Source: an uncultured Candidatus Saccharibacteria bacterium (GTDB taxonomy: Bacteria; Patescibacteriota; Minisyncoccia; UBA6257; WO2-44-18). Taken from it: a stretch of 64,000 nucleotides of DNA. The DNA lies in the NCBI GenBank assembly GCA_964637575.1, contig CAZWVU010000003.1:65586-129585 (forward strand). The letters run 5' to 3'. How positions within the stretch are numbered: position 1 is the first letter of the stretch; each line of letters begins with the position of its first letter. The notes beneath the pieces were generated by a model. The model did no database searches and had not been told where the DNA came from. It worked only from the letters and a program-made list of their open reading frames with translations. The position numbers were made by a program, and so were the translations under genes. Shown one piece after another: positions 39,553-63,432 of the stretch.

Positions 39553-39567
39553 TCCACTATTATACTG

Positions 39568-39649
39568 TGCCGAGGGTGGGATTTGAACCCACACGCCTTG
39601 CGGCGCCAGCTCCTAAAGCTGGTGCGTCTGCCAATTCCGCCACCTCGGC
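39568..39649 (-). tRNA. tRNA-Leu (anticodon TAG)
   Basis: Acceptor stem GCCGAGG/CCTCGGC, anticodon loop TTTAGGA, long variable arm, T-loop GGTTCAAATCC. Confidence 0.8.
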
Positions 39650-39894
39650 ATTTTAAACAGCTCGGCTTCGCCTCGATCAAAAAACTGTCGAGGTGTCGGC
39701 CCTGGGCGCTTTTGCGCCCGCTTTCGTTTCGCTCAAGCCCACGAGAGCATACCATCAAGCCCGCTCGAGCGGGCTATCCAGAGGATATCCACAAGTCATT
39801 CACAAAATCGGGAAGCTCCTGAATGACCGGATGATACTATTATACGTAGCTCTTCGCAATAATTCGACAGGCTCATTACGAGAGGAGGAAGAAC

Positions 39895-40395
39895 GTGAAA
39901 TCGAATATTTCAGAAATAATCGAAGGCCAGCGGAGCCGGGAGACGCGACTGGCAGGTATAGTGTTCAAGTATTGCCCGGACCTGGTGCTTCATTCGCGGG
40001 TCGGGAGGGGACAGGCGCGAACCTTCGTGCCGCGGTTGAGATTCGATCGTTCGCGGCGGTTCGGCTGGTTTTTCCGGCTTTTCACCGGGCGCATCTCCAG
40101 TCCCGCCCTCGCGATTACGGGAAACATCCGTTCAGCGTTGGACATGAGCCGGGAATGGATTCCCATCGAAATTCACTGCTACGACATGGGATTTCTGAAT
40201 TCCGTGCTGTGCGTTGTGGTTGCCTATCGGAATGAAACCGGCTGTCCCGCGCGCGTAATCGAGGAACCGCTGGCGGATGATTCGCGCTGGAAGCCGGCGA
40301 TCCGCGTCCTGCTCGCCATCGCCGCGATGAGCGCGATCCTGATCGGCGTGAGACTCCTTTCCATGTCGTTCTTCAAAAATCTTTTCAGCTTCTGA
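39895..40395 (+). CDS. Hypothetical protein (166 aa), C-terminal TM helix
   Basis: GTG start with an AGGAGG Shine-Dalgarno 7 nt upstream. Followed by a terminator. Confidence 0.4.
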   Translation: MKSNISEIIEGQRSRETRLAGIVFKYCPDLVLHSRVGRGQARTFVPRLRFDRSRRFGWFFRLFTGRISSPALAITGNIRSALDMSREWIPIEIHCYDMGFLNSVLCVVVAYRNETGCPARVIEEPLADDSRWKPAIRVLLAIAAMSAILIGVRLLSMSFFKNLFSF

Positions 40396-40424
40396 TCCCG
40401 CTCCTTGACGAGCGGGATTTTTTG
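40395..40424 (+). terminator. Rho-independent terminator
   Basis: atcccgctc / gagcgggat stem followed by a T-run. Confidence 0.65.
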
Positions 40425-40468
40425 TGTTAATTTATTCACAGTTTTTTGAAGAGAAATGGAGGAGGCGA

Positions 40469-41467
40469 ATGAGAAGATTTGCGCGAAGAGCGTTGACCGG
40501 GTTCGCGCGGCTGTTGGCGGCAGGAGTGGTGTGCGGAGGAAGCAGTGCGCTCGTGTGGGCGACATGGCGCTGTTCCGGCATTCCCGGCCTGGCGGGTGCC
40601 GCGATTCTGATCGCGGTGCTTGTCCTGAAGCCGGCGTACCGGAATATTCCGACGCTGCAGATCGGCATGACGACGTTTCTCGGCATGAGGACCGGGCGCG
40701 TTCTGCCCGAAGGGCCGGCGCTGGTGATTCCCTGGCTTGAGAAAGTCTGGCTGTTTGATTACGAGGTGCACGTCGCGCGGGCGGAGGCGAAGGTCTACTG
40801 CAAAGACGGCATCGCGCTGGTCGCAGGCGGGCTTCTGAGCTGGCAGATCGATCCGGATCTGCTGTCCACGAGCTTCGTACTCAACAGGGAAAAAATCGAG
40901 AGCGAACTCGTGAACGCGGCGCGGAGCGAGCTCGGCATGATCGCCAGCGTGTACGGCGCCCTGGAACTGAAAGATTCCTGGGAGGCGGTGGCCAATCTCA
41001 TCAACTGTTCGTTGCGGATGGGAACGCCGCCGCACATCGCGGAGAGCATCCCGCCGGCGCGCCGGCTCGACTTCTACGGCAGCATTCCGTTCCGGAACCG
41101 GCTGGAGCGCGAGCCGCGGCTGGACGAGGAGCGGTCGGAAATCGAGAACCGTTGCGGCGTGCGCATCATCTGTTTCACGCCGGAGCCGCCGGAATTTACC
41201 GAGGGCACGGGCGAGGCGCTGGAGAGCGAGGGCCGGGCGATTCTCAAATCGAAAGCGGATCGCGTCGCGGCGGCGACCAAACTTGAGATCACCAGAAAGG
41301 CGAAGGAGGAAGGGTTGCCGCCGAAAGAGGCGAGCGTCTCCGCCGAGCTGACGATGGGCCAGCGGGTGGAGCGGAAGATCCATGACCTCGGCGGACTGGA
41401 GCGGCTGCGGCCGTTCCTGCCGCCGGAATCGCGTACCTATGGAGGAGCCATATGTCTAAGAAACTGA
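40469..41467 (+). CDS. SPFH/band-7 (stomatin/flotillin-like) domain membrane protein, paralogue 1
   Basis: N-terminal TM helix. SPFH-like core (RVLPEGPALVIPWLEKVWLFDYEVHV...KDGIALVAGGLLSWQIDP...). GGAGGAGG Shine-Dalgarno before the ATG at 40469. Confidence 0.6.
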   Translation: MRRFARRALTGFARLLAAGVVCGGSSALVWATWRCSGIPGLAGAAILIAVLVLKPAYRNIPTLQIGMTTFLGMRTGRVLPEGPALVIPWLEKVWLFDYEVHVARAEAKVYCKDGIALVAGGLLSWQIDPDLLSTSFVLNREKIESELVNAARSELGMIASVYGALELKDSWEAVANLINCSLRMGTPPHIAESIPPARRLDFYGSIPFRNRLEREPRLDEERSEIENRCGVRIICFTPEPPEFTEGTGEALESEGRAILKSKADRVAAATKLEITRKAKEEGLPPKEASVSAELTMGQRVERKIHDLGGLERLRPFLPPESRTYGGAICLRN

Positions 41468-41973
41468 CGGCGGTACTGATGATTGTCGCGTCACTTCTGA
41501 TCACCGGCGGATTTCTCTGGAAGTCCGGCACACTGCAGGCGACCGCGAAATCGATGGCCGAACGCCATCGGGAGGATCAGGCGCGTCAGCGAGCGGCGGC
41601 GGATGCCGAGTGTGCGCGCAAGAATCAGGCGGAAGCCTGGCAGAAGCGATGCGAACAGCTGCGGCATCTGCCGGTGGACGGCCGGGCCGCGATCTCGTTC
41701 CACGGTCTGCAGAAGACACTGGAGTGCGAGCTCCGGCCCGACCGGTGGTCGCGGGAGATCCGGCTTCCGGAGAAGTATGTCAGCTGGACGATCAACGTTT
41801 CTCCCGAAGACGGCCATCTGCTCTGGTTTGACGGCGAGGCCGAACCAGTGGAGCTGAACAAGGACGATCCACCGAGGAATCTCGGCCCGCGTCCCGGAAG
41901 CTTCCGGATTCTCGGAAAGACGGCCGGTCAGAAAGCCAAGATTACGTTTGAAGCGCAAAAGCCCCCTTTTTAG
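41452..41973 (+). CDS. Signal-anchored partner protein (novel family), paralogue 1
   Basis: Overlaps the SPFH gene by 16 nt. N-terminal TM helix. C-terminal domain ends in GSFRILGKTAGQKAKITF and is homologous to 43372-43914. Confidence 0.5.
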   Translation: MSKKLTAVLMIVASLLITGGFLWKSGTLQATAKSMAERHREDQARQRAAADAECARKNQAEAWQKRCEQLRHLPVDGRAAISFHGLQKTLECELRPDRWSREIRLPEKYVSWTINVSPEDGHLLWFDGEAEPVELNKDDPPRNLGPRPGSFRILGKTAGQKAKITFEAQKPPF

Positions 41974-41985
41974 GGGGCTTTTCTT
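41958..41985 (+). terminator. Rho-independent terminator
   Basis: gccccc / gggggc stem followed by ttttctt. Confidence 0.6.
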
Positions 41986-41999
41986 ATACACGGCCATAC

Positions 42000-42029
42000 T
42001 TGACAAAATGAGCTTATTTGTTCTATTAT
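42000..42029 (+). promoter_or_regulatory. Sigma70-like promoter (TTGACA-N18-TATTAT)
   Basis: Consensus -35 hexamer and a near-consensus -10 hexamer upstream of the second SPFH module. Confidence 0.35.
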
Positions 42030-42078
42030 ATTGGCAGTCGTTTGATAGTCTTTTTTAAAGAAAAAATAGGAGGAATGT

Positions 42079-43362
42079 GTGAGTCTGATGGCGATGATTG
42101 GCGCGGGCGCAGGAGTTCTGCTGCTCGCAGCGCTGTTGTTCCAGTTCCGGCGGAAGATTGTCCGGCTTTGGAAGCTGACGCTTTCGCTGGTGATGGTTCC
42201 CGTGGTGTTTACCGCGGTGGTGCTCATTGCGAAGTTCCGCGAACCGCTCAGCGCGTTCGCGGGCAGGGTGCTCGGCCGGATTGCCGGCGCCTGGTCCCTT
42301 TCGTGGGCGTTCGCGGCGGTTGTGCTCGCGCTTGCCTCGGTGGCGACGGCGGTGGCGATCTCGTCCAGTGACGAGAAGGAAGATATGCCGCCTCCAAAGT
42401 TTTCCCGGGTGCCGGCGCTTTGCTGGATCGGCGCGATTCTCTGCGCGATGGTGGCCTACCTGCCGAAGTTCGGCGAAGCGCCGTGGTTGATTTCCGCCAT
42501 GATGGCGCTCGCAGTGCTCTGGCTGATCGCCAGCTGTGTCATGATCGTTCCGCGGTATCACGCGGGCGTCGTGGCGATGGGCGACCGGCCGGTGCGGTCG
42601 GTCAGTTCCGGATGGACGCTGGTCTACCGTCCCCTCGGACTCACGGTCGAAGAGGTGGTCGAAGTGCACGAAGTGCGCACGACTTCCATCAACGACGTGA
42701 TAATCCAGGTGGAGGTGGGCGGTGTCGCGACGCCGGGAACCGAAAAAGAGCCCCTGAATCTCGAGATGACGCTGGAGTACAAGCCCAACGCGGTGAAGTA
42801 CATCCAGTTTCAGAGCGTGAAGCAGGAGAAGCTCGAGCAGATTCTCATCGATCACCTGGAAGGGTTCGCCACCGACGAGTTCAAAAGAGTGGTGAGCATC
42901 CAGGAGGCGTACGACAAGCTGGAAGAGATCGAGACCAAAATTCTTGATCTGTTCCACGGGATCCAGGATACCTACGGAGTGCTGGTGCGGAGCATCACGA
43001 TTGATGACGCGGCGCCGGATCCGAAGGTCATCCAGGCCAAGATCGAACGCCAGAAGAAGCTGAACGATGCGAAGCTGGATGTGGAAATCCAGGCCGAGAT
43101 CAACAAGAAGCGTCAGAAGGAGATGGCCAAGATCCATCAACTGGCGCTCAAGATGATCAAGGAGTGCGAAGCCGCCGGCCAGAAGCTTTCATATAAGGAA
43201 GCGGTGGCCCGCGTCCAGGTGCAGTTCGGGATCGTCAAAGAGTCCAAGAACACGATCGATTTCGGTCCCGGCATCCAGGGCGCCATCGGCGAAGTGATTC
43301 CGTTGTTCTCCCGTGATCGCGGTCCTGAAAAGGATCCGATGGGTTTCGGAAAGAAATCGTAA
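42079..43362 (+). CDS. SPFH/band-7-like domain membrane protein with a coiled-coil C-terminus, paralogue 2
   Basis: Several N-terminal TM helices. SPFH-like region (VVAMGDRPVRSVSSGWTLVYRPLGLTVEEV...). Lys/Glu-rich coiled coil. AGGAGG Shine-Dalgarno. Confidence 0.55.
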   Translation: MSLMAMIGAGAGVLLLAALLFQFRRKIVRLWKLTLSLVMVPVVFTAVVLIAKFREPLSAFAGRVLGRIAGAWSLSWAFAAVVLALASVATAVAISSSDEKEDMPPPKFSRVPALCWIGAILCAMVAYLPKFGEAPWLISAMMALAVLWLIASCVMIVPRYHAGVVAMGDRPVRSVSSGWTLVYRPLGLTVEEVVEVHEVRTTSINDVIIQVEVGGVATPGTEKEPLNLEMTLEYKPNAVKYIQFQSVKQEKLEQILIDHLEGFATDEFKRVVSIQEAYDKLEEIETKILDLFHGIQDTYGVLVRSITIDDAAPDPKVIQAKIERQKKLNDAKLDVEIQAEINKKRQKEMAKIHQLALKMIKECEAAGQKLSYKEAVARVQVQFGIVKESKNTIDFGPGIQGAIGEVIPLFSRDRGPEKDPMGFGKKS

Positions 43363-43371
43363 GGAGGAACT

Positions 43372-43914
43372 ATGGCAGATGCGAAAGGCGGAAAGGCCAC
43401 CGCCAAGAAGTTGGCCGGCAAGAACAAGTTCGTCACGTTCATCGCGCTCGCGTTCCTGCTGATCGGGGTCATGTACTTCAACTTCGGCAAGACTCCCGCC
43501 GATATTCTCGGCGGGAGTTCGAAGCCGGGTTCGGGAAGCTTCACGACGCCGAACAGCCGCTCGAGCCAGCAGGTGGGTGACCGCACGGATTTCGTGCGGT
43601 CCCTGCCCGACAGCGGCAAGCCCGTCGTTCGTTTCAGCGGCGAGAAGCAGGTGGTGGTGGATCTGAAGACCGATGAATGGTCGCAACAGGTCATCATCCC
43701 CGTTTCTCCAACAAAATACGTCGATTGTAGAATCGACGTAGATCCTCCGACTGGCTATTTCGTGAAGTTTCAGGATGGCCAAGTCGATCTGGTAACTGCA
43801 GACCAAAGAGAGTTCGTTGATCATGGAATGAAGAGGGGAATTTTCCGAATTCTCGGAACCTCTTCAGGACAAAAGGCAACGATCACTGTTTTTTTTCGAT
43901 CTGTGGCCAAGTAA
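43372..43914 (+). CDS. Signal-anchored partner protein (novel family), paralogue 2
   Basis: AAGGAGG Shine-Dalgarno. N-terminal TM helix. C-terminus ends in GIFRILGTSSGQKATITVF and aligns with paralogue 1 over about 90 aa. Confidence 0.5.
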   Translation: MADAKGGKATAKKLAGKNKFVTFIALAFLLIGVMYFNFGKTPADILGGSSKPGSGSFTTPNSRSSQQVGDRTDFVRSLPDSGKPVVRFSGEKQVVVDLKTDEWSQQVIIPVSPTKYVDCRIDVDPPTGYFVKFQDGQVDLVTADQREFVDHGMKRGIFRILGTSSGQKATITVFFRSVAK

Positions 43915-43916
43915 CC

Positions 43917-43958
43917 AAAACCCCCAGAAGCAATGCTTCTGGGGGTTTATTATTTTAC
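43917..43958. terminator. Bidirectional terminator
   Basis: 11-bp stem cccccagaagc / gcttctggggg, with an A-run before and a T-run after. Confidence 0.6.
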
Positions 43959-44020
43959 GTTAGCGCGAAGGTAAGATTGCCGCGTCACTTCGTTCCTCGC
44001 AATGATAGCACTATTGCGTC

Positions 44021-44365
44021 CTACCGTGCTCCGACAATCGCGCCGGCAACGGCCACGATCAACTGCGCGAGAAGCGCCACGCCTACGCCGATCACGGCAT
44101 AGATAATGGTATTTTTCGCGGTCTGGACTTTGTCTTCGTTGCCTGCCGCAGTCATATAGTTCCACCCGGCATAGATCACCATTACCGCGGCGATCACGAT
44201 GATCGCGGTCAGGAAGTAGTTGGCAATCGTCCGGATAATGCCGAACAGCTGGTCAATCGGGTTGCCACGCACCGCTACCGGGGCCGGGACTGTCTGGGCG
44301 CCCGCGAGGAGCGGCAGCAGCGCCACTGTCACTACTCCCGCGATTCCGAAAATCTTTTTTGTCAT
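44021..44365 (-). CDS. Secreted two-helix hairpin small protein, paralogue 1 (VirB2/TrbC-pilin-like architecture)
   Basis: Signal peptide ending LLAGA|QT. Two hydrophobic helices separated by AGNEDK. Start uncertain. Confidence 0.45.
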   Translation of the reverse strand: MTKKIFGIAGVVTVALLPLLAGAQTVPAPVAVRGNPIDQLFGIIRTIANYFLTAIIVIAAVMVIYAGWNYMTAAGNEDKVQTAKNTIIYAVIGVGVALLAQLIVAVAGAIVGAR

Positions 44366-44481
44366 ATTAGTAAAGCTGGTTTCATCTCGACCTTGAACAC
44401 TTTCCATTATAGCATCCCGCACATAAAAGCAACTCTTTCGCTTTTCCACACGGCTTTAACCAGGTATGTACGGGACAAGAA

Positions 44482-44838
44482 TTAAAGCTGGACTCCCACA
44501 ATTTGTCCCACAATCGCGATGATCACCTTGAAAAGAAGCATCACGCCGAGACCGATGACTACATAGAGGATGATCCGCTTGCCCTGCGAGACCTTATCCT
44601 CGCTTCCCGCGGAGGTAATGATGAGAAACGCCGCGTAGATAATCATCACCGTGCCGATGAGAATGGACGCCTCCAAGAGAAATCCCGCGATGGCGTTGAT
44701 AACCTGAATAAGCGTTTTATTGGTTTTGAGAGGATTAGGGAGAGTTGTATTTGGAGGTTGAGTAAAGCCACTGCTTTGAGCATGTGCCAAGAACGGCAGT
44801 AAAGTGGTTAAATAAATCGCTGAAATTATTTTTTTCAT
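44482..44838 (-). CDS. Secreted two-helix hairpin small protein, paralogue 2
   Basis: Signal peptide FLAHA|QS. Conserved IYAAFLIITSAGSEDK core. Confidence 0.5.
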   Translation of the reverse strand: MKKIISAIYLTTLLPFLAHAQSSGFTQPPNTTLPNPLKTNKTLIQVINAIAGFLLEASILIGTVMIIYAAFLIITSAGSEDKVSQGKRIILYVVIGLGVMLLFKVIIAIVGQIVGVQL

Positions 44839-44839
44839 A

Positions 44840-45235
44840 TTAGAAAATTGATCCTTTGGTGAAGAAGTTGAGGACGGTGTTGACGATCAGGTAGGAGCCG
44901 AAGGCGATGGCGACGCCGATGACGACGGCGGTGATGATCTGCTTGCCTTTCGCGAATTTATCTTCGTTTCCGGCTGCTGTCAGTATAACAAATCCGCCGT
45001 AGGCGATGAAAAGCGCCGCCAGCGGGACGACGATGTACACCATAAAGTTGATGATCTGCTTGATGAACTCCACGGCGGCGTTGAGATTGCACGATCCCGG
45101 CTGTCCCGGCGGCAGGGAGGGATTACATTTCGGGGCGAGATTCTGAGCCATGGCCGGAACGGCCAAACTAAAAAGTAAAAATGAAAAAGTAAAAACGATA
45201 GTTTCAATTTTTAAATTTAATTTATAATTTTTCAT
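44840..45235 (-). CDS. Secreted two-helix hairpin small protein, paralogue 3
   Basis: Signal peptide VPAMA|QN. Conserved IAYGGFVILTAAGNEDK core. Start abuts the stop of the solute-binding protein gene. Confidence 0.5.
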   Translation of the reverse strand: MKNYKLNLKIETIVFTFSFLLFSLAVPAMAQNLAPKCNPSLPPGQPGSCNLNAAVEFIKQIINFMVYIVVPLAALFIAYGGFVILTAAGNEDKFAKGKQIITAVVIGVAIAFGSYLIVNTVLNFFTKGSIF

Positions 45236-46522
45236 TTAACGGCTTCGCCGCTGCATCAGGTCGGTGACCTTGCTGGCGGCTTCGGAGAGCGCGCGGTCAA
45301 TCTGCAGGCGGCCGCCGTTCACATCGGCGATCATCTGGGAGAAGATGCTGTCCACCGCGGCGTTATCAATTTCCGGCCAGGAGCGGGCGGTGAGCGCCTG
45401 TTTGGCGAAGATGCCGAGATCCGGCTGGGTGGAAATATATTCATCAATCAGCGCGCGGAGCGCCGGCGGGCGGCCGGAAAGCTGAAGATATTTACGCGAA
45501 GCGTCCGGGTTGGCGCCGAGGAACGTCACGAAATCCTGGGCGAGCGGCTGATTCTGGGTCTTATTGGAGACGGCGATACCCCAGTAGTTGGCGAAATTCA
45601 CCGGCGAGGTCGCCTCTACCGGCTGGAGCATCGGCGCCACGCGGAATTTCAGGAACGGGCTCTTGTCTTTCAGGAACTGGATCTTGTCCGAATAGTTGAA
45701 CATGATCGCGTCCTGGCCGGCGGCGAAATCATCCAGCGAGAAGGGAAGCGAGTCGTTCCAGGTATACGAAGAGTCGCGGCCGGAGGCGAACTTCGTGTAG
45801 TAGGCGAGCGCCTGCTGGCCTTCCGCCGAGGCGAAGGTGGCGTTTTTGAAATCACTGTCGGTCATCTGCGTGCCGGCCTGCAGCATCACCAGACTCAAAA
45901 GATCGGTCGCGTGATCAATGCTCTTGTCGGAGCCGCCGACCGCCGCCGCGGCCTTGGTGATCCGCCCAGCTTTGTCAATTTCGCGGATGCGGGGGATGAT
46001 CTTTTCCAGATCGGCCCAGGTTTTTGGCGGCAGGGAGATGCCTTTCGCGTCAAAGATATCCTGGTTGTAGTACAACGCGAGCGTATCAAGATAGAGCGGA
46101 TAGGTCCAGACGGCGTTGTCCGGCGCGAAATCCTGCTGGACGATGGTGGGGAAGAGCGACTTGAAATTGGCGAGTGCCGAGGCGTCGGTGCCGAGCGGCA
46201 GGATCTTATTGGAGTGCTTCGGCAGCCAGGTGTTGTGGAACATCAGCACGTCCGGGCCGGTATTGCCGGCAAGCGCGTCCACCAGCTGCTGTTCGTACGT
46301 ACCCGGGTCCATCTGGACGTAGGAGATATCAATTTTGGACTTCGGATACTGCGCTTTGTACATATCTATGAGCGGCTGGATGACGGCGCTGTCGTCCACG
46401 CCCCAGAACTTGATCTCGCCCGACACCTGCGTGGATGACTTCTGCGTGCCAAACAAAAATACGGCGATAATTCCGCCGATGACGAGCAGTGCGAGGATGA
46501 TGATAACAACCCGGGGTTTCAT
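45236..46522 (-). CDS. Extracellular solute-binding protein (ABC-type, family 1, sugar-like), membrane-anchored
   Basis: N-terminal anchor. Size and sequence resemble MalE-like substrate-binding proteins. No permease or ATPase genes nearby. Confidence 0.65.
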   Translation of the reverse strand: MKPRVVIIILALLVIGGIIAVFLFGTQKSSTQVSGEIKFWGVDDSAVIQPLIDMYKAQYPKSKIDISYVQMDPGTYEQQLVDALAGNTGPDVLMFHNTWLPKHSNKILPLGTDASALANFKSLFPTIVQQDFAPDNAVWTYPLYLDTLALYYNQDIFDAKGISLPPKTWADLEKIIPRIREIDKAGRITKAAAAVGGSDKSIDHATDLLSLVMLQAGTQMTDSDFKNATFASAEGQQALAYYTKFASGRDSSYTWNDSLPFSLDDFAAGQDAIMFNYSDKIQFLKDKSPFLKFRVAPMLQPVEATSPVNFANYWGIAVSNKTQNQPLAQDFVTFLGANPDASRKYLQLSGRPPALRALIDEYISTQPDLGIFAKQALTARSWPEIDNAAVDSIFSQMIADVNGGRLQIDRALSEAASKVTDLMQRRSR

Positions 46523-50212: not shown

Positions 50213-50758
50213 TTATGCTTTTAATACCACCACTTTCATTCCCGGTGTAATATCTTTTTTCTTGATGACCAGTTTTTCCTCCGGTTCGGCTTTCTTCTCT
50301 ACTTCCTTCAAAAACGCCGCCACCTCCGCCGGCTTTATATATGAAGGGATGACGATCTTGGGCTGGATCTGCTTGATCACTTTGGCGCTGATGCCCGCCG
50401 GCGCGAAGAGAATGTCCACTTCGCCGAGCTTGTCCAAAAGCCCCGGCTCCATCTCCTGCATCGCCTCGCCCATAAACACCAGCCGCATCTCCTCGGTTTT
50501 TACCAAGTAAGTTGTGGCCAGCCCGCCTGAGGCGGGAAATCCCCCCATTTCCACTTCGGAAATTTCATATTCGCCCGGTCCGTAAATATGCCCCGCTTCC
50601 GGCGGCCACGTCTTTAGTACGGAGTTCTTAGTTCCAAGTTCTAAGTTCTGCGTATGCAGGGTTATGTCGCCTTTGAAACGCGGCAGGGGATCAGTGATGA
50701 TACTCACTTTTCCTGATTGGATCTTAAAGCACCGCTCTCCTGCGTAGGTGATTACCAT
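50213..50758 (-). CDS. Metallo-beta-lactamase-fold hydrolase-like protein (tentative)
   Basis: Size and sequence pattern resemble short MBL-fold proteins. No clear HxHxDH motif, so confidence is low. Confidence 0.4.
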   Translation of the reverse strand: MVITYAGERCFKIQSGKVSIITDPLPRFKGDITLHTQNLELGTKNSVLKTWPPEAGHIYGPGEYEISEVEMGGFPASGGLATTYLVKTEEMRLVFMGEAMQEMEPGLLDKLGEVDILFAPAGISAKVIKQIQPKIVIPSYIKPAEVAAFLKEVEKKAEPEEKLVIKKKDITPGMKVVVLKA

Positions 50759-50840
50759 AAGAATACTTTCTATTTTACACTACTTTCTGACCAAAACAAA
50801 GTATTTATGCTACTTGAAAAACATCTGCTTAAGAGTGATA

Positions 50841-51551
50841 ATGAGCGAGAAATCAATGAATTTTACTTGCCCGTACTGTAATAGGCCAACGACAATAACC
50901 GGCCCCAATTCTTTTTCTGATTGGCGACATATCGTTATAGCAAAATCAACGCTTGGGAATGCCGGGTTATTTTCTCGAGCTATTACTTGCCCCAATAAAG
51001 AATGTAATAAGCTTTGGCTTCATATTGGGCTTTATGAGGCAGATTATGCAGGACGCCGAGTTGAATATAACCGCCTGAATCAGTGGCAGCTTTTGCCAGA
51101 ATCGGAAGCGAGGGTTTTACCAGAGTATATACCCGCACCAATACAGGAGGACTATTATGAAGCATGCAGAATCCGTGATTTAAGCCCGAAGGCATCCGCC
51201 ACACTCGCGAGACGTTGCCTACAGGGCATGATCCGTGATTTTTGGAAGATTAAAAAGGCGCGACTTAAGGAAGAAGTTGATGCGCTGGAAGAAAAAGTGG
51301 ATGCGGATACTTGGTCGAGTATAGATGCAGTCAGAAGTGTCGGTAACATTGGCGCGCACATGGAAAGAGACATTGATGTCATCGTTGCGGTTGAGCCACA
51401 AGAGGCGCAGCTACTAATTGGTCTTATCGAGCAATTGATTGACGATTGGTATGTCGCCCGAGATTCTAGGCACAAGCGCACAGAAGAATTAAAAAAGTTG
51501 GCAATGGATAAGCAAGAACAAAGAAGTGGAGCTGAAAAAAAGGAAGAATAA
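50841..51551 (+). CDS. Zinc-ribbon + DUF4145-like helical domain protein
   Basis: N-terminal CPYCN...CPNKEC zinc ribbon. C-terminal segment (ACRIRDLSPKASATLARRCLQGMIRDF...RSVGNIGAHMERD) resembles DUF4145. TATAAT overlaps the start codon, so the mRNA is probably leaderless. Confidence 0.5.
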   Translation: MSEKSMNFTCPYCNRPTTITGPNSFSDWRHIVIAKSTLGNAGLFSRAITCPNKECNKLWLHIGLYEADYAGRRVEYNRLNQWQLLPESEARVLPEYIPAPIQEDYYEACRIRDLSPKASATLARRCLQGMIRDFWKIKKARLKEEVDALEEKVDADTWSSIDAVRSVGNIGAHMERDIDVIVAVEPQEAQLLIGLIEQLIDDWYVARDSRHKRTEELKKLAMDKQEQRSGAEKKEE

Positions 51552-51555
51552 AATT

Positions 51556-51822
51556 ATGCGCACAAGTACAAAAATATTAATCGGAGTAGTTGCTTTTCTT
51601 GCAGTATTATTTGTATTTACCCGGTATGCCCCTAACTCTCCAAAAACTGATCCAGAAGCAATAAAGAAAACGCTCCAAATATTAATCAACGGCAACGACG
51701 CCAAAATACAAGAACTCCAGGATGAGATCAAGAAAACCAGAGCTTCAAGTGACTGCCTGAAGTCAGCGATTGTGTCATATAAGGACCAAGGCTTTCAGGA
51801 AATTTTAAGCAGTTGCCAATAA
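51556..51822 (+). CDS. Small signal-anchored protein (88 aa)
   Basis: AAGGAAG Shine-Dalgarno. One TM helix followed by a coiled-coil-like tail. Confidence 0.4.
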   Translation: MRTSTKILIGVVAFLAVLFVFTRYAPNSPKTDPEAIKKTLQILINGNDAKIQELQDEIKKTRASSDCLKSAIVSYKDQGFQEILSSCQ

Positions 51823-51915
51823 CTTACTCAAAGAATAAGGCATTGCACTGGTTTGGCATTAATTAAATAAAAAATCCCCCTTGCGGGTATTTTTATTTTC
51901 GGCGAAGATGGCTGG

Positions 51916-53070
51916 ATGGCCGATGAATTACCAGAGGGGCTGAAGGGAATGAAAAAAGTTAAATCATCTGACGGTGATTTTGTCGCCAAGAAAAAGCCCG
52001 GAAAAATATATGTTTCTGACTTCTCTGCAAAAGAGGGGAAGTATTTTAGCGTGATTGCGGATGAAGGAGGTGGCAAGGTTCTGCATGATAGCGCCCGACT
52101 TCAGATCCGAGCTTGTTTTATCACGAAGCTCGGACAGGTGAACGAATTGAAGATTCAACGATTTGAAAAAAAGAAAGGAGAAGTCGTTCCGGGCAGTGTA
52201 GTCGAAATACGTATTGACACCGCTAATTTAGCCGTGCTCCGCGAGTTTGTCGACTTTATCCAGCGAGCCGACCTAGCATCGGTTGCTGCCGGGCGGCTTA
52301 GTTTTGACGCCGACCTGAAGCTAGAAAAAGGATTACAGGCCAAGCTGGTGGCTCTTGCGCAGGACGAGGGCGGGAGGGCAATGCTCCTTAAACTTTTCGA
52401 AGATGGATATCTCACATCTGGCCTCGATGTTTCCGATCTTATCAAAAAAGGATTATCGCATGAGAAGCTTGAGCAAAAATTTGCCATCCTTACAAAATTT
52501 GAAAAACTAATTAAAACCCCCGATATCAGCGAGTTAAAGATTCAGGAATTTCTCACTTCGGCGCCATGGATTTTTGGTCCTGAATATACTGCTGTTGATA
52601 TTCGCGATGCCGGTTCATCCGGAGTACCGGATCGGCGCTTGAAAAGAATCGACGGGCTGAGCGATATCTTAGAGTTCAAGCTTCCGTCCGCTGAAGTTCT
52701 GAGAGCTGATAAAATGGGCAGGCAATACATTGCGCCCGCGGCGGCTGAGGCGCTCGGTCAATTAATGGCCTATCTTGAATACTATACGAGCGAATACCAG
52801 GAGCTAAAAAAAGACGTGGATGGGAAGGAGGTGCTAGAAGAGTTTCGTGGTCGTTACTACAAGCCAAAGGGAATCCTTTTAATTGGTCGGAGAAGCGCCG
52901 CTTCAGGAGTTGATGGCGTGAAGGCGACGACCGACGTTCAACCGAAGCACCTGCGGCGCATGATGTCATTCTTTCACGGCATCGAGGTTCTCACATATGA
53001 CGATTTAATTGAGCGCGCTCGGAATGGATTGGTTGCAATATCGGGCGATGGCGCATCTACGTGGGTGTAG
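51916..53070 (+). CDS. Predicted PD-(D/E)xK-superfamily nuclease; Shedu/DUF4263-like, tentative
   Basis: C-terminal region ...FGPEYTAVDIRD...RIDGLSDILEFKLP fits a D...(hydrophobic)3-E-x-K restriction-endonuclease-fold motif. N-terminal region is not assignable. Confidence 0.45.
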   Translation: MADELPEGLKGMKKVKSSDGDFVAKKKPGKIYVSDFSAKEGKYFSVIADEGGGKVLHDSARLQIRACFITKLGQVNELKIQRFEKKKGEVVPGSVVEIRIDTANLAVLREFVDFIQRADLASVAAGRLSFDADLKLEKGLQAKLVALAQDEGGRAMLLKLFEDGYLTSGLDVSDLIKKGLSHEKLEQKFAILTKFEKLIKTPDISELKIQEFLTSAPWIFGPEYTAVDIRDAGSSGVPDRRLKRIDGLSDILEFKLPSAEVLRADKMGRQYIAPAAAEALGQLMAYLEYYTSEYQELKKDVDGKEVLEEFRGRYYKPKGILLIGRRSAASGVDGVKATTDVQPKHLRRMMSFFHGIEVLTYDDLIERARNGLVAISGDGASTWV

Positions 53071-57549: not shown

Positions 57550-60500
57550 ATGTTTAAGCCAAAGAGAATACTCTTTTTGGTGCTTATTGGACTGGCACTG
57601 TCAGGCTTTCTTTTTGCATGTGAAAGGACGGCCAATGCGGAACTCACCGTCGTTGCCGGGCCGTACACGAATGCCGCGTTGCAGCAGGTGTCTGACAGCC
57701 CCGTCCAAACACTGGAAGGTTGGTTCCGCAATCTTGGCAGTTTAATTATCAGCAACGTGCGCCATACCGCGGTGAGCGTGGCGGATATATTCCGGCCCGG
57801 CGCCGCCCAGCCGCTGGCCCAGCTTCTTCCGCAGAACCAGCTTGCGCAAACAGTAGAAGTGACTCCGTTGCCCGGCACGGAAACGGTCAACAAGACCACC
57901 TCCACGTCCGGCTCGGTCACCACTCAGGTCATCGAACGTCAGATCACCCCGATCCAGATCAGTGTCAGCGTGAGCCAGAACGCTTCCAATAGTAATCTCC
58001 AGACGGAGATCAACGCGCTCCAGTCCCAATTCACCGCCTTCCAGCAATCCCAATCCCAGGTCACCCAATCTATTTTCCAGGTGGTCGGGCAAAGCAGTAT
58101 CTCCAGCAAATTTGTCACTGATCTTCTCACTGATGCCAACATTCCCAACAACATCACCGTTTCCGGATATCTTCCGGTGGCCGGAGGCAGCTTGAGCGGC
58201 GATTTGGGTGTGGGTGGCGTATTGAGCGTCACCGGCACTGCTACTTCTTCGGTAAGCGGTCCGCTCACTATCACCACGACGACCGCGACCTCTTCCTTCA
58301 GCGGGGGATTGACGGTGGCGGCGACGAGCGGCGTCTTCGGCATCGGCACGACTACTCCAGGCGCTGCGCTCGCCGTTGCGGGCAACGCGGTAGTCGGCGG
58401 GAACACGACCATCGTCGGCAATCTGGACATTCAGGGTTCCTGCACCGGCTGCGGCGGTTCTTCGATCGTGAATCTTAGCGAAGCCGGATCGCTCGATGGC
58501 TTTGCCTCCACTGCTCCCTGGGGCGTCTTATCGGTTGAGCAGATATCTTCCAACAATACCAACCTTCCCGCCTTTATCGTTTCCGATCAGGGCACCTCGA
58601 CCGCCTCACTCATCGTGATGAACAACAACGGGTATGTCGGCATCGGCACCAACACTCCTTCGGAGCGGTTTACCGTGGGAAAAGGGAATTTCCTGAATCC
58701 GATCGCGAGCACGACGCCGCTTGCCGGTGTGGATTTCGGCAGCGATGCCGTTGAGGGCATGGCCATTGTCGGCCGCTACGCGTATGTAGTAACGACCGGC
58801 GATACGGGAACCTGCACGACCTCAACGTTTACCGGCTGCGAATTCAAGATTATCGATCTCCACAATATCAAAAAACCGGCTATCGTCGGCGGGTACGATC
58901 TGGAATCCACCAGTTCCTTTACCGATGGTGGCGAGTCCATCGCGGTTTACGGCCGCTACGCGTATGTCGGGAAGTACCAGAGTGCGAAAACCTGCAGCCA
59001 GCCGAACAATGTCAAAGGCTGCGAGCTGGTGATCTTTGATATTTCCAATCCGGCTTCCACGACGGTGGTGAGCGGCACCAATTTTGACACTGTGGGCATC
59101 CGGGCGATTCAGACGAACGGCCGCTATGCATATATCGGGACCAGCCGGGACAGCGTGACGTGCTCCGTTCCGGGCGAGCCGGAAGGTTGCGATTTTCAGG
59201 TGTACGACGTATCCAACGTTGCCTCCACCACCTTTATCGGCGGCACAGATCTTAAAGACGGAGTCAGCAACATCGGAGTTACCATCAACGGGGTCCAGAT
59301 CCGCGGTAAATATGCCTATGTCGCCAAGTCGGAATCGGGCGGCGAAACGTGCGACACTACATATGTTACCTGCGAATTTGTGATCTATGATATTTCCGAT
59401 CCGACCAACCCGACGGCGATCGGCGGCGCCGATCTTGGTCCGGCCGCCAACAGCCAGGTGGCGTATGGACTCGCCATCCAGGGACGGTACGCTTACATTA
59501 CTACTGACGACCAGGCTGCCGCGTGCACCCCGTCTACCGGCAATGGCTGCGGACTGCTCGTGTTTGATATATCCAATCCCGCCTCTCCCTCGCTGGTAAA
59601 CGGTTTTGATATCGCCAACAACAGCGGCTCCGGCGTCATCGCCTTCGGACATTATCTGGTAGTGACCAACTCCGTTAATTCCGGGAATTGCACCGGCCAA
59701 AGCGATTGCACCACGAGTATATTCGATATCAGCAACCCGAACTCTCCTTCGTTTCTTGCCGGCGTTGATACCGGCGAGAAGGGCGTCGTGAGCGATGGTT
59801 TTCTCAACGCGGACGGCCGTTATCTGTTCATGTATGGCGGCGAAAACAGCACTGTCTGCAGTGGCACGGATGTGAGCGGCTGCGAACTTCGCGTCTACGA
59901 CCTCGGCGGCTCCGAGATCGGTTCCGCCAACATCGGATCCCTGGAAGCGGGCATTGTTTCCACGCAAGGCGATCTGACCGTCGGCGGCAATGCCAGGATC
60001 GCCTCCGGCCTCAACGTCGGCTTCGCCGGCATTGGCACTGAAGGCACCCTGATGGTAGCTTCCTCATCTTCATTCTTCGGACCGATCGGCGTCGGCACCA
60101 CTTCACCGCAAGGCATGGTGGCTATCGATAACTCCGTCGCCGGCACCAAAATGCCCGCACTTCTCATCAAAGCCGGCGGCACGGGCAACGGCAATATCGC
60201 CATCGCGGTTAGTTCAACCGAAGTTTGCAAAGATACCGTGAACGTCGCCACCTGCGTGCTCAACGACCTTGCGGAGCTTTACCCTGCTTCCGGTCAGCTG
60301 GAAGGCGGGGACATCGTTGCCTTTGATTCTGGCGCGCCGATTAATGTGAAAAAAGCCGGCTATGACAATCGTGAACAGCTGGCGGGTGTTCTCTCTACAA
60401 ACCCGGCGATCGTTTTTGAAGGTTCCAAGATCAAGATTATGGGCGGCTCTTATCAGTGGGAAGGCAGCAGCGTACCGGTAGCGCTCTCCGGAAGAATTCC

Positions 60501-61053
60501 GGTCAAGGTCTCTCTGGACAACGGTCCGATTCATATCGGTGATCCGATCACGATCTCTACTTCCACGCCCGGCGTCGGCGTGAAGGCCACCGAATCCGGC
60601 AAGATCATCGGCTACGCGCTGGAAAATCTCGATACGGCAACGACCGCCCCGGGAGTATTTGAAAAAGTAATGATCTTCGCCAACCTGACTTACTGGCAGA
60701 ATCCGAAACAGGACAGCCAGAGTTGGCTCGCCGCCGTCGCTGACTGGCTGAAGGGAGCGGTAGTAACAATACAGGAATTATTCGTCGGGAAACTTACGGT
60801 GGGAACGCCGGATCAGCCGGCGGGAATTACCATGTATGACCAGGCGACCGGACAGCCGTACTGCTTCGGTCTCCGGAATGGCGCCGCGGAATATGTGCCG
60901 GGGGCGTGCGGATCCGCCGCGTCTGTTACCACGCCTTCTTCACCGTCCGATCCTTCGCCATCTTCTTCCGATTCTGCAACTTCAACGACCACTCCGGATA
61001 CTGCTACTCCCGATACCGTGGTTCCTGATGCCTCTGGCACGCCGTCGCAGTAG
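57550..61053 (+). CDS. Giant cell-surface protein with seven LVIVD-type beta-propeller repeats and a Ser/Thr/Pro-rich tail
   Basis: N-terminal signal/anchor. Seven repeats of G(R/K)YAY(V/I)...C....C(E/D)(F/L).(I/V)(F/Y)D(I/V)SNP..P...G. C-terminus is PSSPSDPSPSSSDSATSTTTP. Confidence 0.6.
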   Translation: MFKPKRILFLVLIGLALSGFLFACERTANAELTVVAGPYTNAALQQVSDSPVQTLEGWFRNLGSLIISNVRHTAVSVADIFRPGAAQPLAQLLPQNQLAQTVEVTPLPGTETVNKTTSTSGSVTTQVIERQITPIQISVSVSQNASNSNLQTEINALQSQFTAFQQSQSQVTQSIFQVVGQSSISSKFVTDLLTDANIPNNITVSGYLPVAGGSLSGDLGVGGVLSVTGTATSSVSGPLTITTTTATSSFSGGLTVAATSGVFGIGTTTPGAALAVAGNAVVGGNTTIVGNLDIQGSCTGCGGSSIVNLSEAGSLDGFASTAPWGVLSVEQISSNNTNLPAFIVSDQGTSTASLIVMNNNGYVGIGTNTPSERFTVGKGNFLNPIASTTPLAGVDFGSDAVEGMAIVGRYAYVVTTGDTGTCTTSTFTGCEFKIIDLHNIKKPAIVGGYDLESTSSFTDGGESIAVYGRYAYVGKYQSAKTCSQPNNVKGCELVIFDISNPASTTVVSGTNFDTVGIRAIQTNGRYAYIGTSRDSVTCSVPGEPEGCDFQVYDVSNVASTTFIGGTDLKDGVSNIGVTINGVQIRGKYAYVAKSESGGETCDTTYVTCEFVIYDISDPTNPTAIGGADLGPAANSQVAYGLAIQGRYAYITTDDQAAACTPSTGNGCGLLVFDISNPASPSLVNGFDIANNSGSGVIAFGHYLVVTNSVNSGNCTGQSDCTTSIFDISNPNSPSFLAGVDTGEKGVVSDGFLNADGRYLFMYGGENSTVCSGTDVSGCELRVYDLGGSEIGSANIGSLEAGIVSTQGDLTVGGNARIASGLNVGFAGIGTEGTLMVASSSSFFGPIGVGTTSPQGMVAIDNSVAGTKMPALLIKAGGTGNGNIAIAVSSTEVCKDTVNVATCVLNDLAELYPASGQLEGGDIVAFDSGAPINVKKAGYDNREQLAGVLSTNPAIVFEGSKIKIMGGSYQWEGSSVPVALSGRIPVKVSLDNGPIHIGDPITISTSTPGVGVKATESGKIIGYALENLDTATTAPGVFEKVMIFANLTYWQNPKQDSQSWLAAVADWLKGAVVTIQELFVGKLTVGTPDQPAGITMYDQATGQPYCFGLRNGAAEYVPGACGSAASVTTPSSPSDPSPSSSDSATSTTTPDTATPDTVVPDASGTPSQ

Positions 61054-61062
61054 TAGAATGTC

Positions 61063-62547
61063 ATGTCCAAGAAAATCTTTTTCGTCATTGGAGCAGGGTT
61101 AGCACTGCTGGCCGCGACCGCGTTCGCGCAGACGACTTTCACGCTCACGCTCCATCTTACCAATCCCGGACCGGATGCGGTGAATGTTGTCGGCAAATTC
61201 ACCCTGCCCGATTGCCTTATCCCGCAGAATTTGCCGGCGGGCCAGTCTTGGGATCCCATCTCGCGCGTACTCCGGGCGCCGCTTGGCCCGCTCGCGAGCG
61301 GAGAGACTGCGTCAATTCCGATTGAAGTGGAAGTGACAACTCCGCAGTGCTCCGGCAACGCCACGGTGGAAGGGGAATACACCTACAGCTATGTTACTTC
61401 CGGCGCGGGCGGCGGCAGCCAGCCGGCGCAACATGTTCCTCCCACGCCCGAAACCATTACTCCCGCTCCCGCCGAGCAGTCGGCCGCGCCCGGCGGCGCC
61501 AGCGCCGGCGGACCGCTCCAGACTTTGAATTTCCTGCCTTCGCCGGTCGCGAACGCGGTGCGGTCGCTGCGGGAAAATCCCCAGGCGGTGGCGATCGTGA
61601 ACCAGGCGGTGGCGCCGGCGGCGCTGCTCGCAAGCGCCCTTTCCACCATCGTCGTTACCGGCAACGCCGTAGCCGCCGGGTCGCATATCGTCCTCGGCTG
61701 GTGGCAGACGCTCCGGTTTATTTTTCTTGGATTTTTAAAACGGAAGCCGAGATATCCCTGGGGGCGTGTGATCAACCAGTGGACGCAACAGCCGATTGCC
61801 GGCGCCCGGGTAAACGTGGTGGAGCCGGTGTTCAAGCGGGTAAAAGAAACGCAGCTTACCGACCGCGAGGGACGTTTCGGATTTCTGGTAACGCCCGGCG
61901 CCTATTACCTGACGGTGTCCCGGGCGGGGTTTGCGCCGGCGCACACCGAGGAGTTTTCCGTGGGGGAGAACGTGGCGGCGCTGAATCTGACGGTGGAAAT
62001 GGTGGAAACGCGGAGAATTCTTTCCGACGTGCGGACCTGGTGGGTGAAATTCATCCATGCCGTCAACGACTTTTTGTACCAGATCAATCCGCTGGTGCTG
62101 GTGGTGGGCACGGGAATCAGCGCGTTTGCACTTCTCGTGGTGCCCAGTACGCTGAATGTGATCGTGCTGATTTCCTACGCCGTAATTGACGCCGCCAAAG
62201 CCTGGCTTTCACTCTATTCCGCGAAGTCCTATGGCCTGGTTATCGATCAACAGACCCGTCTGCCGCTCGCGTTGAGTGTCATCAGAATTTTTAACGTCGA
62301 CAACAACTGGCTGATCGGCACGCGCGTCGCCGATGACCGCGGCCGCTTCACTTTCCTTACGCTCCCGGGGCGCTACTATCTAAGCTGCGACAAAGCCGGT
62401 TATCAGGAGTTGAAAACCGCCCCGATCGCGATCAGCCACGCCAATATTTTCAGGCAGACGCTGGCGCTTGCGCCGGCTTCGCAGGATATTCCGCCCAGTT
62501 ATCCACAAAGTCTTCCGCCCGATGAAAGTCGTGGTATTATGAAATAG
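61063..62547 (+). CDS. Secreted/membrane protein with two carboxypeptidase-regulatory-like beta-sandwich domains
   Basis: Signal peptide. Ala/Pro-rich linker. Two repeats (GARVNVVE...DREGRFGFLVTPGAYYLTV and TRVADDRGRFTFLTLPGRYYLSC) flank two TM helices. Confidence 0.45.
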   Translation: MSKKIFFVIGAGLALLAATAFAQTTFTLTLHLTNPGPDAVNVVGKFTLPDCLIPQNLPAGQSWDPISRVLRAPLGPLASGETASIPIEVEVTTPQCSGNATVEGEYTYSYVTSGAGGGSQPAQHVPPTPETITPAPAEQSAAPGGASAGGPLQTLNFLPSPVANAVRSLRENPQAVAIVNQAVAPAALLASALSTIVVTGNAVAAGSHIVLGWWQTLRFIFLGFLKRKPRYPWGRVINQWTQQPIAGARVNVVEPVFKRVKETQLTDREGRFGFLVTPGAYYLTVSRAGFAPAHTEEFSVGENVAALNLTVEMVETRRILSDVRTWWVKFIHAVNDFLYQINPLVLVVGTGISAFALLVVPSTLNVIVLISYAVIDAAKAWLSLYSAKSYGLVIDQQTRLPLALSVIRIFNVDNNWLIGTRVADDRGRFTFLTLPGRYYLSCDKAGYQELKTAPIAISHANIFRQTLALAPASQDIPPSYPQSLPPDESRGIMK

Positions 62548-62556
62548 TAAAAAACT

Positions 62557-63432
62557 ATGGACGGCGACGATGTAAAAATAACCACCGGTGAAGGCAGGGG
62601 TCCGGAAACCCCGCCTGTTTCCCCGTCCCCGATGACTCCTCCCGCAAGCCAGCCGGATTTTCTTTCTTCCGATAATCTTGCTCCGTCTCCGGTCCCCGCA
62701 GGGGTGGAAGCAGGCCCGCGGCCGCTTCGCGTCATCGTCTTTGTGCTGGTCGGGCTGATCTTTGTCGTCGGCATCGGCGCGCTCGGTTATTTCGTTATCT
62801 ACCCGATTATTTTTCCGGCAAAGGCTCCGGCGGAAAATCCCGCGGTCAACACCCTGCCTCCGGTAACGCAGGCGTCTCATGCTTCCTATCTTAAGGCTTC
62901 ACCGTCGGGAACCGCCGAAATCAAGCTTGGCGATACCAACTATCCGACCATTGCCAGCGCCCTGCAAAATGAATCCCTCAATCAGCTGGCGGACGGCCAG
63001 TATAAAGAAGTAAGAATTTCCAGCAACAGCGGGCAGGTTCCCTTCGCCGCGTATCTCGGCGGCGTGAGCCCGGCGACAAAAGCGCTGGCTCTCGGCGACT
63101 GGTTTGAAAATGATTTTACGGCCCTGTTGTACTATGATCCCGCCGGTGTGTGGCCGGTGTATGTCGCCAAATTGAAACAGGGCGTGGCGCCGAGCGCGGT
63201 CATGTCGGGTTTTAAAGGCGCTGAAGGCGTCCTGGATCTTTCCAACTTCTATCTGAACTCGCCGGGAACGTTCAGCGCGTTCAAGGATGGAAAAGTGGCC
63301 ACCTACGCGACGCGGTATACCATCGCAAGCACCCCTGGCGCTGCGTTCAACTATGGCGTTGCCGGAGATTACTTTATCATCAGCACCAACTACAACGCGC
63401 TGAAGGGCGTGTTGCCGAAGCTGGGACTCTAA
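62557..63432 (+). CDS. Membrane-anchored hypothetical protein with a Pro-rich N-terminus
   Basis: TM helix after a Pro/Ser-rich N-terminal region. Beta-rich ectodomain. Confidence 0.4.
   Translation: MDGDDVKITTGEGRGPETPPVSPSPMTPPASQPDFLSSDNLAPSPVPAGVEAGPRPLRVIVFVLVGLIFVVGIGALGYFVIYPIIFPAKAPAENPAVNTLPPVTQASHASYLKASPSGTAEIKLGDTNYPTIASALQNESLNQLADGQYKEVRISSNSGQVPFAAYLGGVSPATKALALGDWFENDFTALLYYDPAGVWPVYVAKLKQGVAPSAVMSGFKGAEGVLDLSNFYLNSPGTFSAFKDGKVATYATRYTIASTPGAAFNYGVAGDYFIISTNYNALKGVLPKLGL

Follow-up and report, generated by a model that had tools for sequence, protein, structure and literature searches.

The 64,000-nucleotide window analyzed here, a contig segment from an uncultured Candidatus Saccharibacteria bacterium, carries on its plus strand a compact cluster of five genes, in which two SPFH/band-7 membrane proteins are each followed by a small membrane-anchored protein, hereafter called the partner. 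All five open reading frames (ORFs) listed in an earlier note on this DNA were found at the positions given there. The first encodes a lineage-specific hypothetical protein of 166 residues (hyp, 39895..40395). It is followed by module 1, composed of SPFH-1 (40469..41467, 332 residues, S1-type, Band_7) and partner-1 (41452..41973, 173 residues, P1-type), and by module 2, composed of SPFH-2 (42079..43362, 427 residues, S2-type, Band_7) and partner-2 (43372..43914, 180 residues, P2-type). A strong Shine-Dalgarno sequence had been claimed for every gene and, in fact, AGGAGG-type motifs are located 4–7 nt 5′ of all five starts. On balance, this cluster is probably a vertically inherited and fast-evolving chromosomal locus of a groundwater Patescibacteria (candidate phyla radiation, CPR) lineage, which consists of two modules, each made of an SPFH protein and a bitopic partner, and of a tail-anchored protein.

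The left border of the cluster is a tRNA-Leu(TAG) gene on the minus strand (39567..39649; ARAGORN and Rfam). Its 5′ end points toward hyp, and the cluster thus adjoins the 5′ end of the tRNA as had been described. Besides tRNAs, no RNA families were detected by the Rfam scan of the window. At the right end, the strong bidirectional terminator that had been noticed is a perfect inverted repeat (43918..43948) with 15-nt arms, 100% complementary, a 1-nt loop and A/T runs on either side. It is common to module 2 and to a convergent pilin array, and its sequence is identical in two related loci, L004 and L010. Three further signals, all on the plus strand, subdivide the cluster: a terminator-like hairpin between hyp and module 1 (40394..40419), which has a 10-bp stem with six GC pairs and the T-run TTTTGTGTT directly 3′ of the stem; a terminator-like hairpin found by hairpin scan at the end of module 1 (41963..41977); and a sigma-70-like promoter of module 2 (42000..42029), with the arrangement TTGACA-18 nt-TATTAT and 11 of 12 matches. 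Collectively, these signals predict three transcription units, namely hyp alone, module 1 and module 2. SPFH-1 and partner-1 overlap by 16 nt, which suggests translational coupling, while a 9-nt spacer separates the SPFH-2 stop from the partner-2 start. As judged from this layout, the two genes of each module are coupled, either tightly or at the level of translation.

The hypothetical protein at the head of the cluster has a C-terminal transmembrane (TM) helix (residues 138–156, hydropathy), which makes it a predicted tail-anchored protein, and an invariant LHSRxGxG...PRLRFD motif. Its orthologs in the related loci L002, L004, L006 and L010 are 29–45% identical, and it is missing from the single-module loci L012, L014 and L016. 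Pfam and PDB searches with this protein returned no match. For the five cluster proteins, nothing informative was obtained from NCBIfam and PHROGs.

Both large proteins had been read as SPFH/band-7 proteins, an assignment which the Pfam search upheld, SPFH-1 scoring 24.8 bits and SPFH-2 33.2 bits against Band_7 (PF01145; gathering cut-off, 23.6 bits). That they are highly diverged was also borne out, since BLASTP gave no alignment of SPFH-1 with SPFH-2. Profiles built from their respective orthologs matched each other with an hhalign probability of 97.8%. When compared to PDB sequences, the S1 profile matched HflC best (E=2e-10), then prohibitin and stomatin, while the S2 profile matched stomatin (3e-5), HflK (1e-4) and QmcA (4e-4). 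S1 and S2 are two old SPFH subfamilies, the former nearest HflC/prohibitin and the latter nearest stomatin/HflK. SPFH-1, whose orthologs are 48–55% identical, is built of an Arg-rich N-terminal tail, a two-helix hairpin anchor, the SPFH domain and a helical tail. In SPFH-2, a multi-TM N-terminal region, the length of which varies between orthologs, precedes the SPFH domain, and a helical region rich in Lys and Glu follows it. In all of these proteins the membrane anchor precedes the SPFH domain, as a two-helix hairpin in S1 and as 2–5 helices in S2 orthologs (hydropathy), and the C-terminal region, as read from the sequence, is helical and Lys/Glu-rich. A word-index homolog search with SPFH-2 returned the self-match alone, and in PHROGs this protein weakly matched a phage "lipoprotein" family (phrog_200, 2.9e-7).

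The overlap between SPFH-1 and partner-1 (window 41452–41467) involves the last five codons of SPFH-1 (…C-L-R-N-stop) and the start codons of partner-1 (M-S-K-K-L). The Cys-x-x-N terminus of SPFH-1 is kept in the L002, L004 and L006 orthologs. It was considered as a CaaX-like signal (CLRN) and this reading was discarded, as the conserved end is probably a dual-coding constraint imposed by the partner-1 start.

The two small partners had been described as homologous, and BLASTP confirmed this relationship (E=7e-18, 36% identity across 104 residues). Partner-1 has a conserved single TM helix, a charged helical stalk and a C-terminal β-sandwich domain of ~100 residues, while in partner-2 a Lys-rich N-tail and one TM helix are followed by a disordered Ser/Gly/Pro stalk and, at the C-terminus, by a jelly-roll β-sandwich. 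An AlphaFold2 model computed from a seven-sequence partner alignment predicted a TM helix at residues 18–38, a disordered stalk and an all-β domain at residues 71–180 with a pLDDT of ~90. Foldseek returned no match for this domain model at E≤1e-3, the nearest shapes being furin/Kex2 P-domains, PPC domains and cupins. As modeled, the C-terminal domain is thus a generic jelly-roll β-sandwich and not the OB-fold of NfeD, whose C-terminal domain is a five-stranded OB-fold (PMC4208085). The view that the partners are not canonical NfeD proteins was further supported by Pfam, in which nine members of the family matched neither PF01957 nor any other family at E≤1. Similarly, no match was found in NCBIfam, PADLOC, PHROGs or PDB sequences. 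The family therefore lacks a known-family match by sequence and a significant Foldseek match, in agreement with the earlier statement that it was unrecognized.

The partner family is small and confined to one groundwater Patescibacteria clade. A word-index search of 5.8 billion proteins retrieved five partner clusters with one sequence and seven with a profile, and an exhaustive hidden Markov model search with the C-terminal domain profile retrieved 46 clusters at E≤1e-3 among 1.84 billion representatives, while a pattern-limited scan matched two of 185,579 species-representative genomes. Nearly all of the 46 clusters comprise proteins of 145–270 residues with the domain at the C-terminus, and their common architecture begins with a short basic N-tail and a single TM helix, from which a variable stalk leads to the C-terminal domain. 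In two members there is an additional, shorter variant domain, and one member (P0028) has a PKD domain within its stalk. Four giant proteins (P0024, P0039, P0040 and P0049) were examined as possible relatives and set aside as repeat proteins (Cna_B, Ig-like, Flg_new); their partial matches to the partner profile were judged spurious or merely β-sandwich-like. Family-wide, the motif [LIM]-P-x-[SDN]-x-x-P (LPDSGKP, LPVDGRA) marks the N-terminal boundary of the β-domain, at 43582–43620 and 41647–41690 in the window. It was rejected as an LPxTG-like sortase signal (LPxS/DxxP), being N-terminal to the domain and not followed by a hydrophobic tail, and could be a processing or docking site.

The association between SPFH proteins and this family, for which co-occurrence had been proposed as a check, was investigated by partner-anchored locus look-ups, which are unbiased as to neighbors. 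In all of them, a gene lies directly upstream of each partner, the overlap often being 1–16 nt. A detectable S1- or S2-type SPFH gene occupies this position in nine lineages (the window, L002, L004/L010, L005/L006, L012, L014, L015, L016 and L020), across which the pairing is thus kept. A single S1-type module is present in L012/L013, L014, L016/L017 and L020/L021, and two S2-type modules in L015. When compared by BLAST bit score, these SPFH genes separate neatly into the two types, S1 and S2. The upstream gene of L011 is an SPFH candidate only, being S2-type by bit score alone, and has no Pfam match. In L018/L019, the upstream gene (448 residues) is a sub-threshold SPFH candidate (Band_7 E=0.023), which hhalign matched to SPFH with a probability of 48.6%, over the helical tail only. 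Both SPFH types pair with one partner family in many lineages, and the pairing is therefore older than the two-module arrangement. Finally, among 6,934 ORFs from 80 loci anchored on a solute-binding protein (SBP) gene, the window and four seed loci, a broadened partner profile detected 26 partner ORFs, all of them in the module region beside the pilin array.

The gene order of the window is found again in its relatives (L001–L003, GCA_023244815.1; L004/L010; L005/L006), at least four of which are diverged: IF-2, Xer, iPGM, tRNA-Leu(tag), hyp, SPFH, partner, SPFH and partner, followed 3′ of the cluster, on the opposite strand, by three type IV secretion system (T4SS) pilin genes, SBP and GyrA. 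The tRNA-Leu(TAG) gene is at the same position in L002, L004, L006 and L010. Close relatives with an empty site were not found, and the module is missing only in much more distant loci. When window genes were compared to these relatives, the flanks showed identities of 76–80% for IF-2, 81–90% for Xer, 77–87% for iPGM, 69–75% for SBP and 89–93% for GyrA. By contrast, the cluster proteins reached 29–44% for hyp, 48–54% for SPFH-1, 31–38% for partner-1, 22–32% for SPFH-2 and 33–51% for partner-2, and the pilins 39–79%. The cluster thus diverges far faster than its flanks. The comparison of two near-identical strains, L004 and L010, at the DNA level further revealed a mosaic: they are 100% identical over 2,470 nt (tRNA, hyp, SPFH-1 and partner-1), then 91% identical across SPFH-2 and an initial ~180 nt of partner-2, while the C-terminal domain of partner-2 is unalignable (L004:8180-8522 versus L010:11035-11281), one locus having the long type and the other the short variant. 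Identity resumes at the terminator. This mosaic results from recombination that swapped, as a cassette, the domain of partner-2 predicted to be external; such an exchange is characteristic of surface-exposed loci subject to diversifying pressure.

The topology of both components can be proposed from their N-terminal regions. S1 orthologs exist in two forms, either with a basic N-tail and a two-helix hairpin or with a single extreme N-terminal TM helix without tail. These two forms fit one orientation only, which would place the SPFH domain in the cytoplasm, and this location also suits those S2 proteins that have two helices and a basic N-tail. It is also the orientation of QmcA and stomatin, HflK/C having the opposite one. 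For the partners, the Lys/Arg-rich N-tails, the Ser/Thr/Pro or helical stalks and the PKD domain of one member point to an N-in/C-out orientation, and the β-sandwich is probably displayed outside the cell. By analogy with the solved cages of HflK/C–FtsH, QmcA, flotillin, stomatin and prohibitin, the SPFH proteins would oligomerize as a ring on the inner membrane face, possibly as S1/S2 hetero-oligomers. Such a ring could corral or stabilize the TM helices of the partners, and this corralling would cluster the variable extracellular jelly-roll domain into a membrane patch. In the P1-type, the TM helix is as conserved as the domain (0.53 and 0.57, compared to 0.36 for the linker), which fits helix–helix packing. 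TM conservation was not retained as a demonstration of TM-mediated contact, since it holds for the P1-type only. The displayed domain may contact host cells or a ligand, or may be targeted by phages or by host pressure.

Several SPFH-containing systems offer points of comparison. In SPFH–NfeD operons (stomatin PH1511/PH1510, FloA–NfeD, QmcA–YbbJ and YqiK–YqiJ), as in this cluster, a scaffold is tightly coupled at the gene level to a small anchored partner with a C-terminal β-domain, and the SPFH domain, predicted to face the cytoplasm here, would have the location known for QmcA and stomatin. The cluster partners nevertheless differ from NfeD, which has TM segments and a cytoplasmic domain, by the lack of an NfeD signature, by a jelly-roll sandwich in place of an OB-fold, and by one N-terminal TM helix with a predicted extracellular domain. 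They are moreover encoded downstream of the SPFH gene, hypervariable and present in one Patescibacteria clade only. HflK/HflC, as well as PHB1/PHB2 and flotillin-1/2, likewise associate two diverged SPFH paralogs side by side and, with S1 nearest HflC and S2 near HflK/stomatin, a hetero-oligomeric ring is conceivable. Unlike HflK/HflC, the cluster SPFH genes belong to separate units, with a terminator and a promoter between them and a partner for each; many lineages with this type of cluster have a single module only; and the SPFH domains are predicted to be cytoplasmic and not periplasmic. HflK/HflC is moreover associated with FtsH, and no FtsH linkage was noticed in the window, although no search aimed at it was made. 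A precedent for a non-NfeD membrane partner is provided by the PspA–YdjG/YdjH–YdjI system of B. subtilis (SamGHI), in which operon-encoded integral membrane proteins bind and localize an SPFH protein (PMC8581546). Unlike the cluster SPFH proteins, YdjI has no membrane anchor of its own and is recruited by partners encoded upstream, and SamGHI is linked to PspA and sigma-W stress. No relationship at the sequence level was found between SamGHI and the partner family.

The module converges on an array of VirB2-like T4SS pilin genes. In the window, three such genes (44021..45235, minus strand) pass the PF18895 gathering threshold of 26.6 bits (39.9, 27.9 and 33.8 bits), and an orphan SBP gene (SBP_bac_1/8 by Pfam; 45236..46522, minus strand) is at the head of the array. 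This SBP lies downstream of GyrA, is accompanied by neither an ABC permease nor an ATPase, and may belong to the pilin operon. Such arrays were reported as 441 occurrences of 2–11 variable pilin genes each, abundant in Saccharimonadia and Microgenomatia (PMC12102498), and one VirB2 array is essential in Ca. Southlakia epibionticum (PMC12102498; PMC10633639). The three-gene array of the window fits this description. Like the cluster, these pilins are fast-evolving and located at the cell surface; the SPFH–partner modules are not pilins, however, and their link to the array is positional only. An SBP-anchored metagenome scan gave 80 loci (L022–L101), 69 of them unique, and the SBP gene is followed by a pilin array in 65 of the 69, with 1–7 detected pilin genes and most commonly three. 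In 27 unique loci with at least 2.5 kb past the array, a convergent SPFH gene was detected in 13, a partner in nine and either of them in 14. In several further loci, an SPFH gene is followed by a small ORF combining TM and β features with similar motifs, which the profiles missed, while in the most distant loci VanW-like, Hsp20, CPBP and ValRS genes are in the module position.

Two further observations concern individual loci. In L089 (7053–8780), a more distant SBP–pilin locus, a 575-residue protein with an N-terminal TM helix and a long Lys/Glu-rich C-terminal helix, flotillin-like in appearance, is convergent on the array; neither the S1 nor the S2 profile detected it, and SPFH-type genes convergent on the array may be more widespread than counted. 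In L016 (50–1427), and in L017, a diversity-generating retroelement (DGR) signature (bAvd and RVT_1) is located ~1.5 kb upstream of the SPFH–partner module, with a MurA-like gene between them.

The earlier note had considered the cluster as a horizontally acquired genomic island at tRNA-Leu, which would bring a foreign membrane-scaffold or stress system. The GC shift on which it relied is real but modest (0.584 versus 0.542 ± 0.024 for 4.3-kb windows, about 1.8 standard deviations): the cluster is the GC-richest 4.3-kb stretch of the window, and single 1-kb windows elsewhere reach 0.594–0.627. The wording "compositionally foreign" proved overstated, as the GC content at third codon positions (GC3) of four cluster genes, 0.66–0.80, is inside the housekeeping range (GyrA 0.78, SBP 0.80 and rpsA 0.76). 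The excess comes mostly from second codon positions in SPFH-1 and partner-1, two proteins with many Ala, Gly, Arg and Pro residues, and it amounts to 4–7 points over the flanks in every relative, following the GC content of each host. Being present in all relatives, it belongs to these genes themselves and was not left behind by a recent import. The adjoining tRNA, the strain-level recombination inside the locus (L004/L010) and the lateral movement of SPFH genes, as described in PMC2636767, would agree with an island. However, the situation that the earlier note itself had named as contradicting its proposal is the one encountered: gene order, tRNA and flanks are the same in at least four relatives, although their cluster proteins are only 22–55% identical. 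In addition, the cluster is on the 5′ side of the tRNA, and neither a tRNA-derived direct (att-like) repeat flanking it nor an adjoining integrase was found, the nearest tyrosine recombinase being a conserved, housekeeping-like Xer on the other side of iPGM. The tRNA-Leu(TAG) gene is therefore a conserved syntenic neighbor and not an integration site. A genuine insertion elsewhere in the window, a Shedu islet at 50.7–53.1 kb, is low in GC and missing from L002. An island is thus very unlikely. An anti-phage defense or abortive-infection membrane system appears more improbable still. Fast evolution and cassette swapping resemble arms-race loci, the Shedu/PD-T7-4 islet is 7 kb away and SPFH-2 weakly matches phrog_200; yet none of the five proteins has a PADLOC match, an enzymatic effector domain is missing, the islet is an insertion of its own, and the locus is fixed among housekeeping genes and not in a variable defense island. 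As for the possibility that the partner is a highly diverged NfeD and the whole an ordinary SPFH–NfeD operon, it is suggested by the small size, the membrane anchor, the C-terminal β-domain and the operon with an SPFH gene. This possibility is hardly credible, given the absence of any Pfam match at E≤1 in nine members, the absence of a PDB sequence match although NfeD C-terminal domains have been solved, and the single N-terminal TM helix with its predicted external domain.

The neighboring pilins raise another question, namely whether the module is a functional accessory of the VirB2-like array, an SPFH nanodomain organizing pilus assembly or host contact and the partner being a pilus-associated surface factor. 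In each of the nine partner-anchored lineages whose downstream sequence is long enough, the module converges on the array, which contains 3–8 pilins in every informative lineage, despite differing upstream neighbors (iPGM/tRNA, Xer, a DUF6259 giant protein, He_PIG, MurA with DGR, PaaX-like and Ham1). The pilins evolve fast too, such arrays have been described and shown to be essential in a cultivated relative, and T4SS components of Agrobacterium are present in detergent-resistant membranes according to PMC8656257. Against this, the convergent orientation and common terminator indicate that modules and pilins are not co-transcribed, the module is detectable in only 14 of the 27 loci with enough flank, and SPFH proteins are unmentioned in the pilin-array papers (PMC12102498, PMC10633639). 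GyrA, SBP and often Xer are as syntenic as the array; the adjacency may thus be plain gene order and is suggestive, without being proof of a functional link. On these grounds we regard such an accessory function as unlikely. The fuller proposal, in which the modules are a membrane-organizing accessory of the episymbiont host-contact apparatus, an SPFH ring clustering a swappable jelly-roll protein near VirB2-like pilus assembly and the partner either determining host specificity or adhesion or being targeted by the phage or host pressure that drives its diversification, is slightly more doubtful again. To the vertically inherited two-module locus, which remains our preferred interpretation, several points can also be opposed. 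SPFH-1 exceeds the Band_7 cut-off by just 1.2 bits, its single-sequence AlphaFold2 model is poor (pLDDT 35), the cage architecture being assumed from family membership, and TM counts of SPFH-2 differ between orthologs in a crude hydropathy scan. The TM helix of P2-type partners is poorly conserved (0.33). The putative physical link between SPFH protein and partner is read from gene order and coupling, and the proposed topology would put their domains on opposite membrane sides, limiting contact to TM helices and short tails. Finally, about half of the SBP–pilin loci have no detectable module, which makes it dispensable in the wider clade.

SPFH scaffolds are universal and, to our knowledge, their partners or clients in bacteria are known for few systems, namely FtsH, NfeD and YdjG/H. 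The family described here would represent a third kind of dedicated SPFH partner, bitopic, hypervariable and predicted to be externally displayed. It occurs in Patescibacteria, in which an obligate epibiotic lifestyle depends on a cell-surface biology that is still almost entirely uncharacterized. If the partner were a host-contact or specificity factor organized by an SPFH nanodomain, membrane-microdomain biology would be linked to episymbiosis. As Saccharibacteria are now genetically tractable, this would also provide a defined and testable gene pair.

Other regions of the window inform on its composition. The three consecutive large genes at 57550–63432 encode probable surface proteins (LVIVD repeats; CarboxypepD_reg, DUF11) and have a GC content of 0.57–0.60 with unusually high values at codon position 2 (0.48–0.51). 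In this genome, GC-rich composition thus goes with non-housekeeping surface proteins and not with the SPFH cluster alone. Conversely, a 2.4-kb GC-poor insert (50748–53070; GC 0.38–0.48, GC3 0.39–0.49) separates the gene for a metallo-β-lactamase-fold protein (Lactamase_B_3) from rpsA and contains a PD-T7-4-like DUF4145 gene, a 98-residue ORF and Shedu SduA (PADLOC, 73.7 bits). It is missing from L002, in which these two flanking genes are directly adjacent. Owing to this adjacency, the insert is a genuine small defense islet and the best candidate for horizontal gene transfer in the window. A GC bump beside a tRNA is hence insufficient to call an island, native surface genes being GC-rich and the real insertion GC-poor. 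In the GCA_023244815.1 lineage, an extra ORF of 135 residues without Pfam match (L001/L002:3756-4163), which has no counterpart in the window, is located between iPGM and tRNA-Leu.

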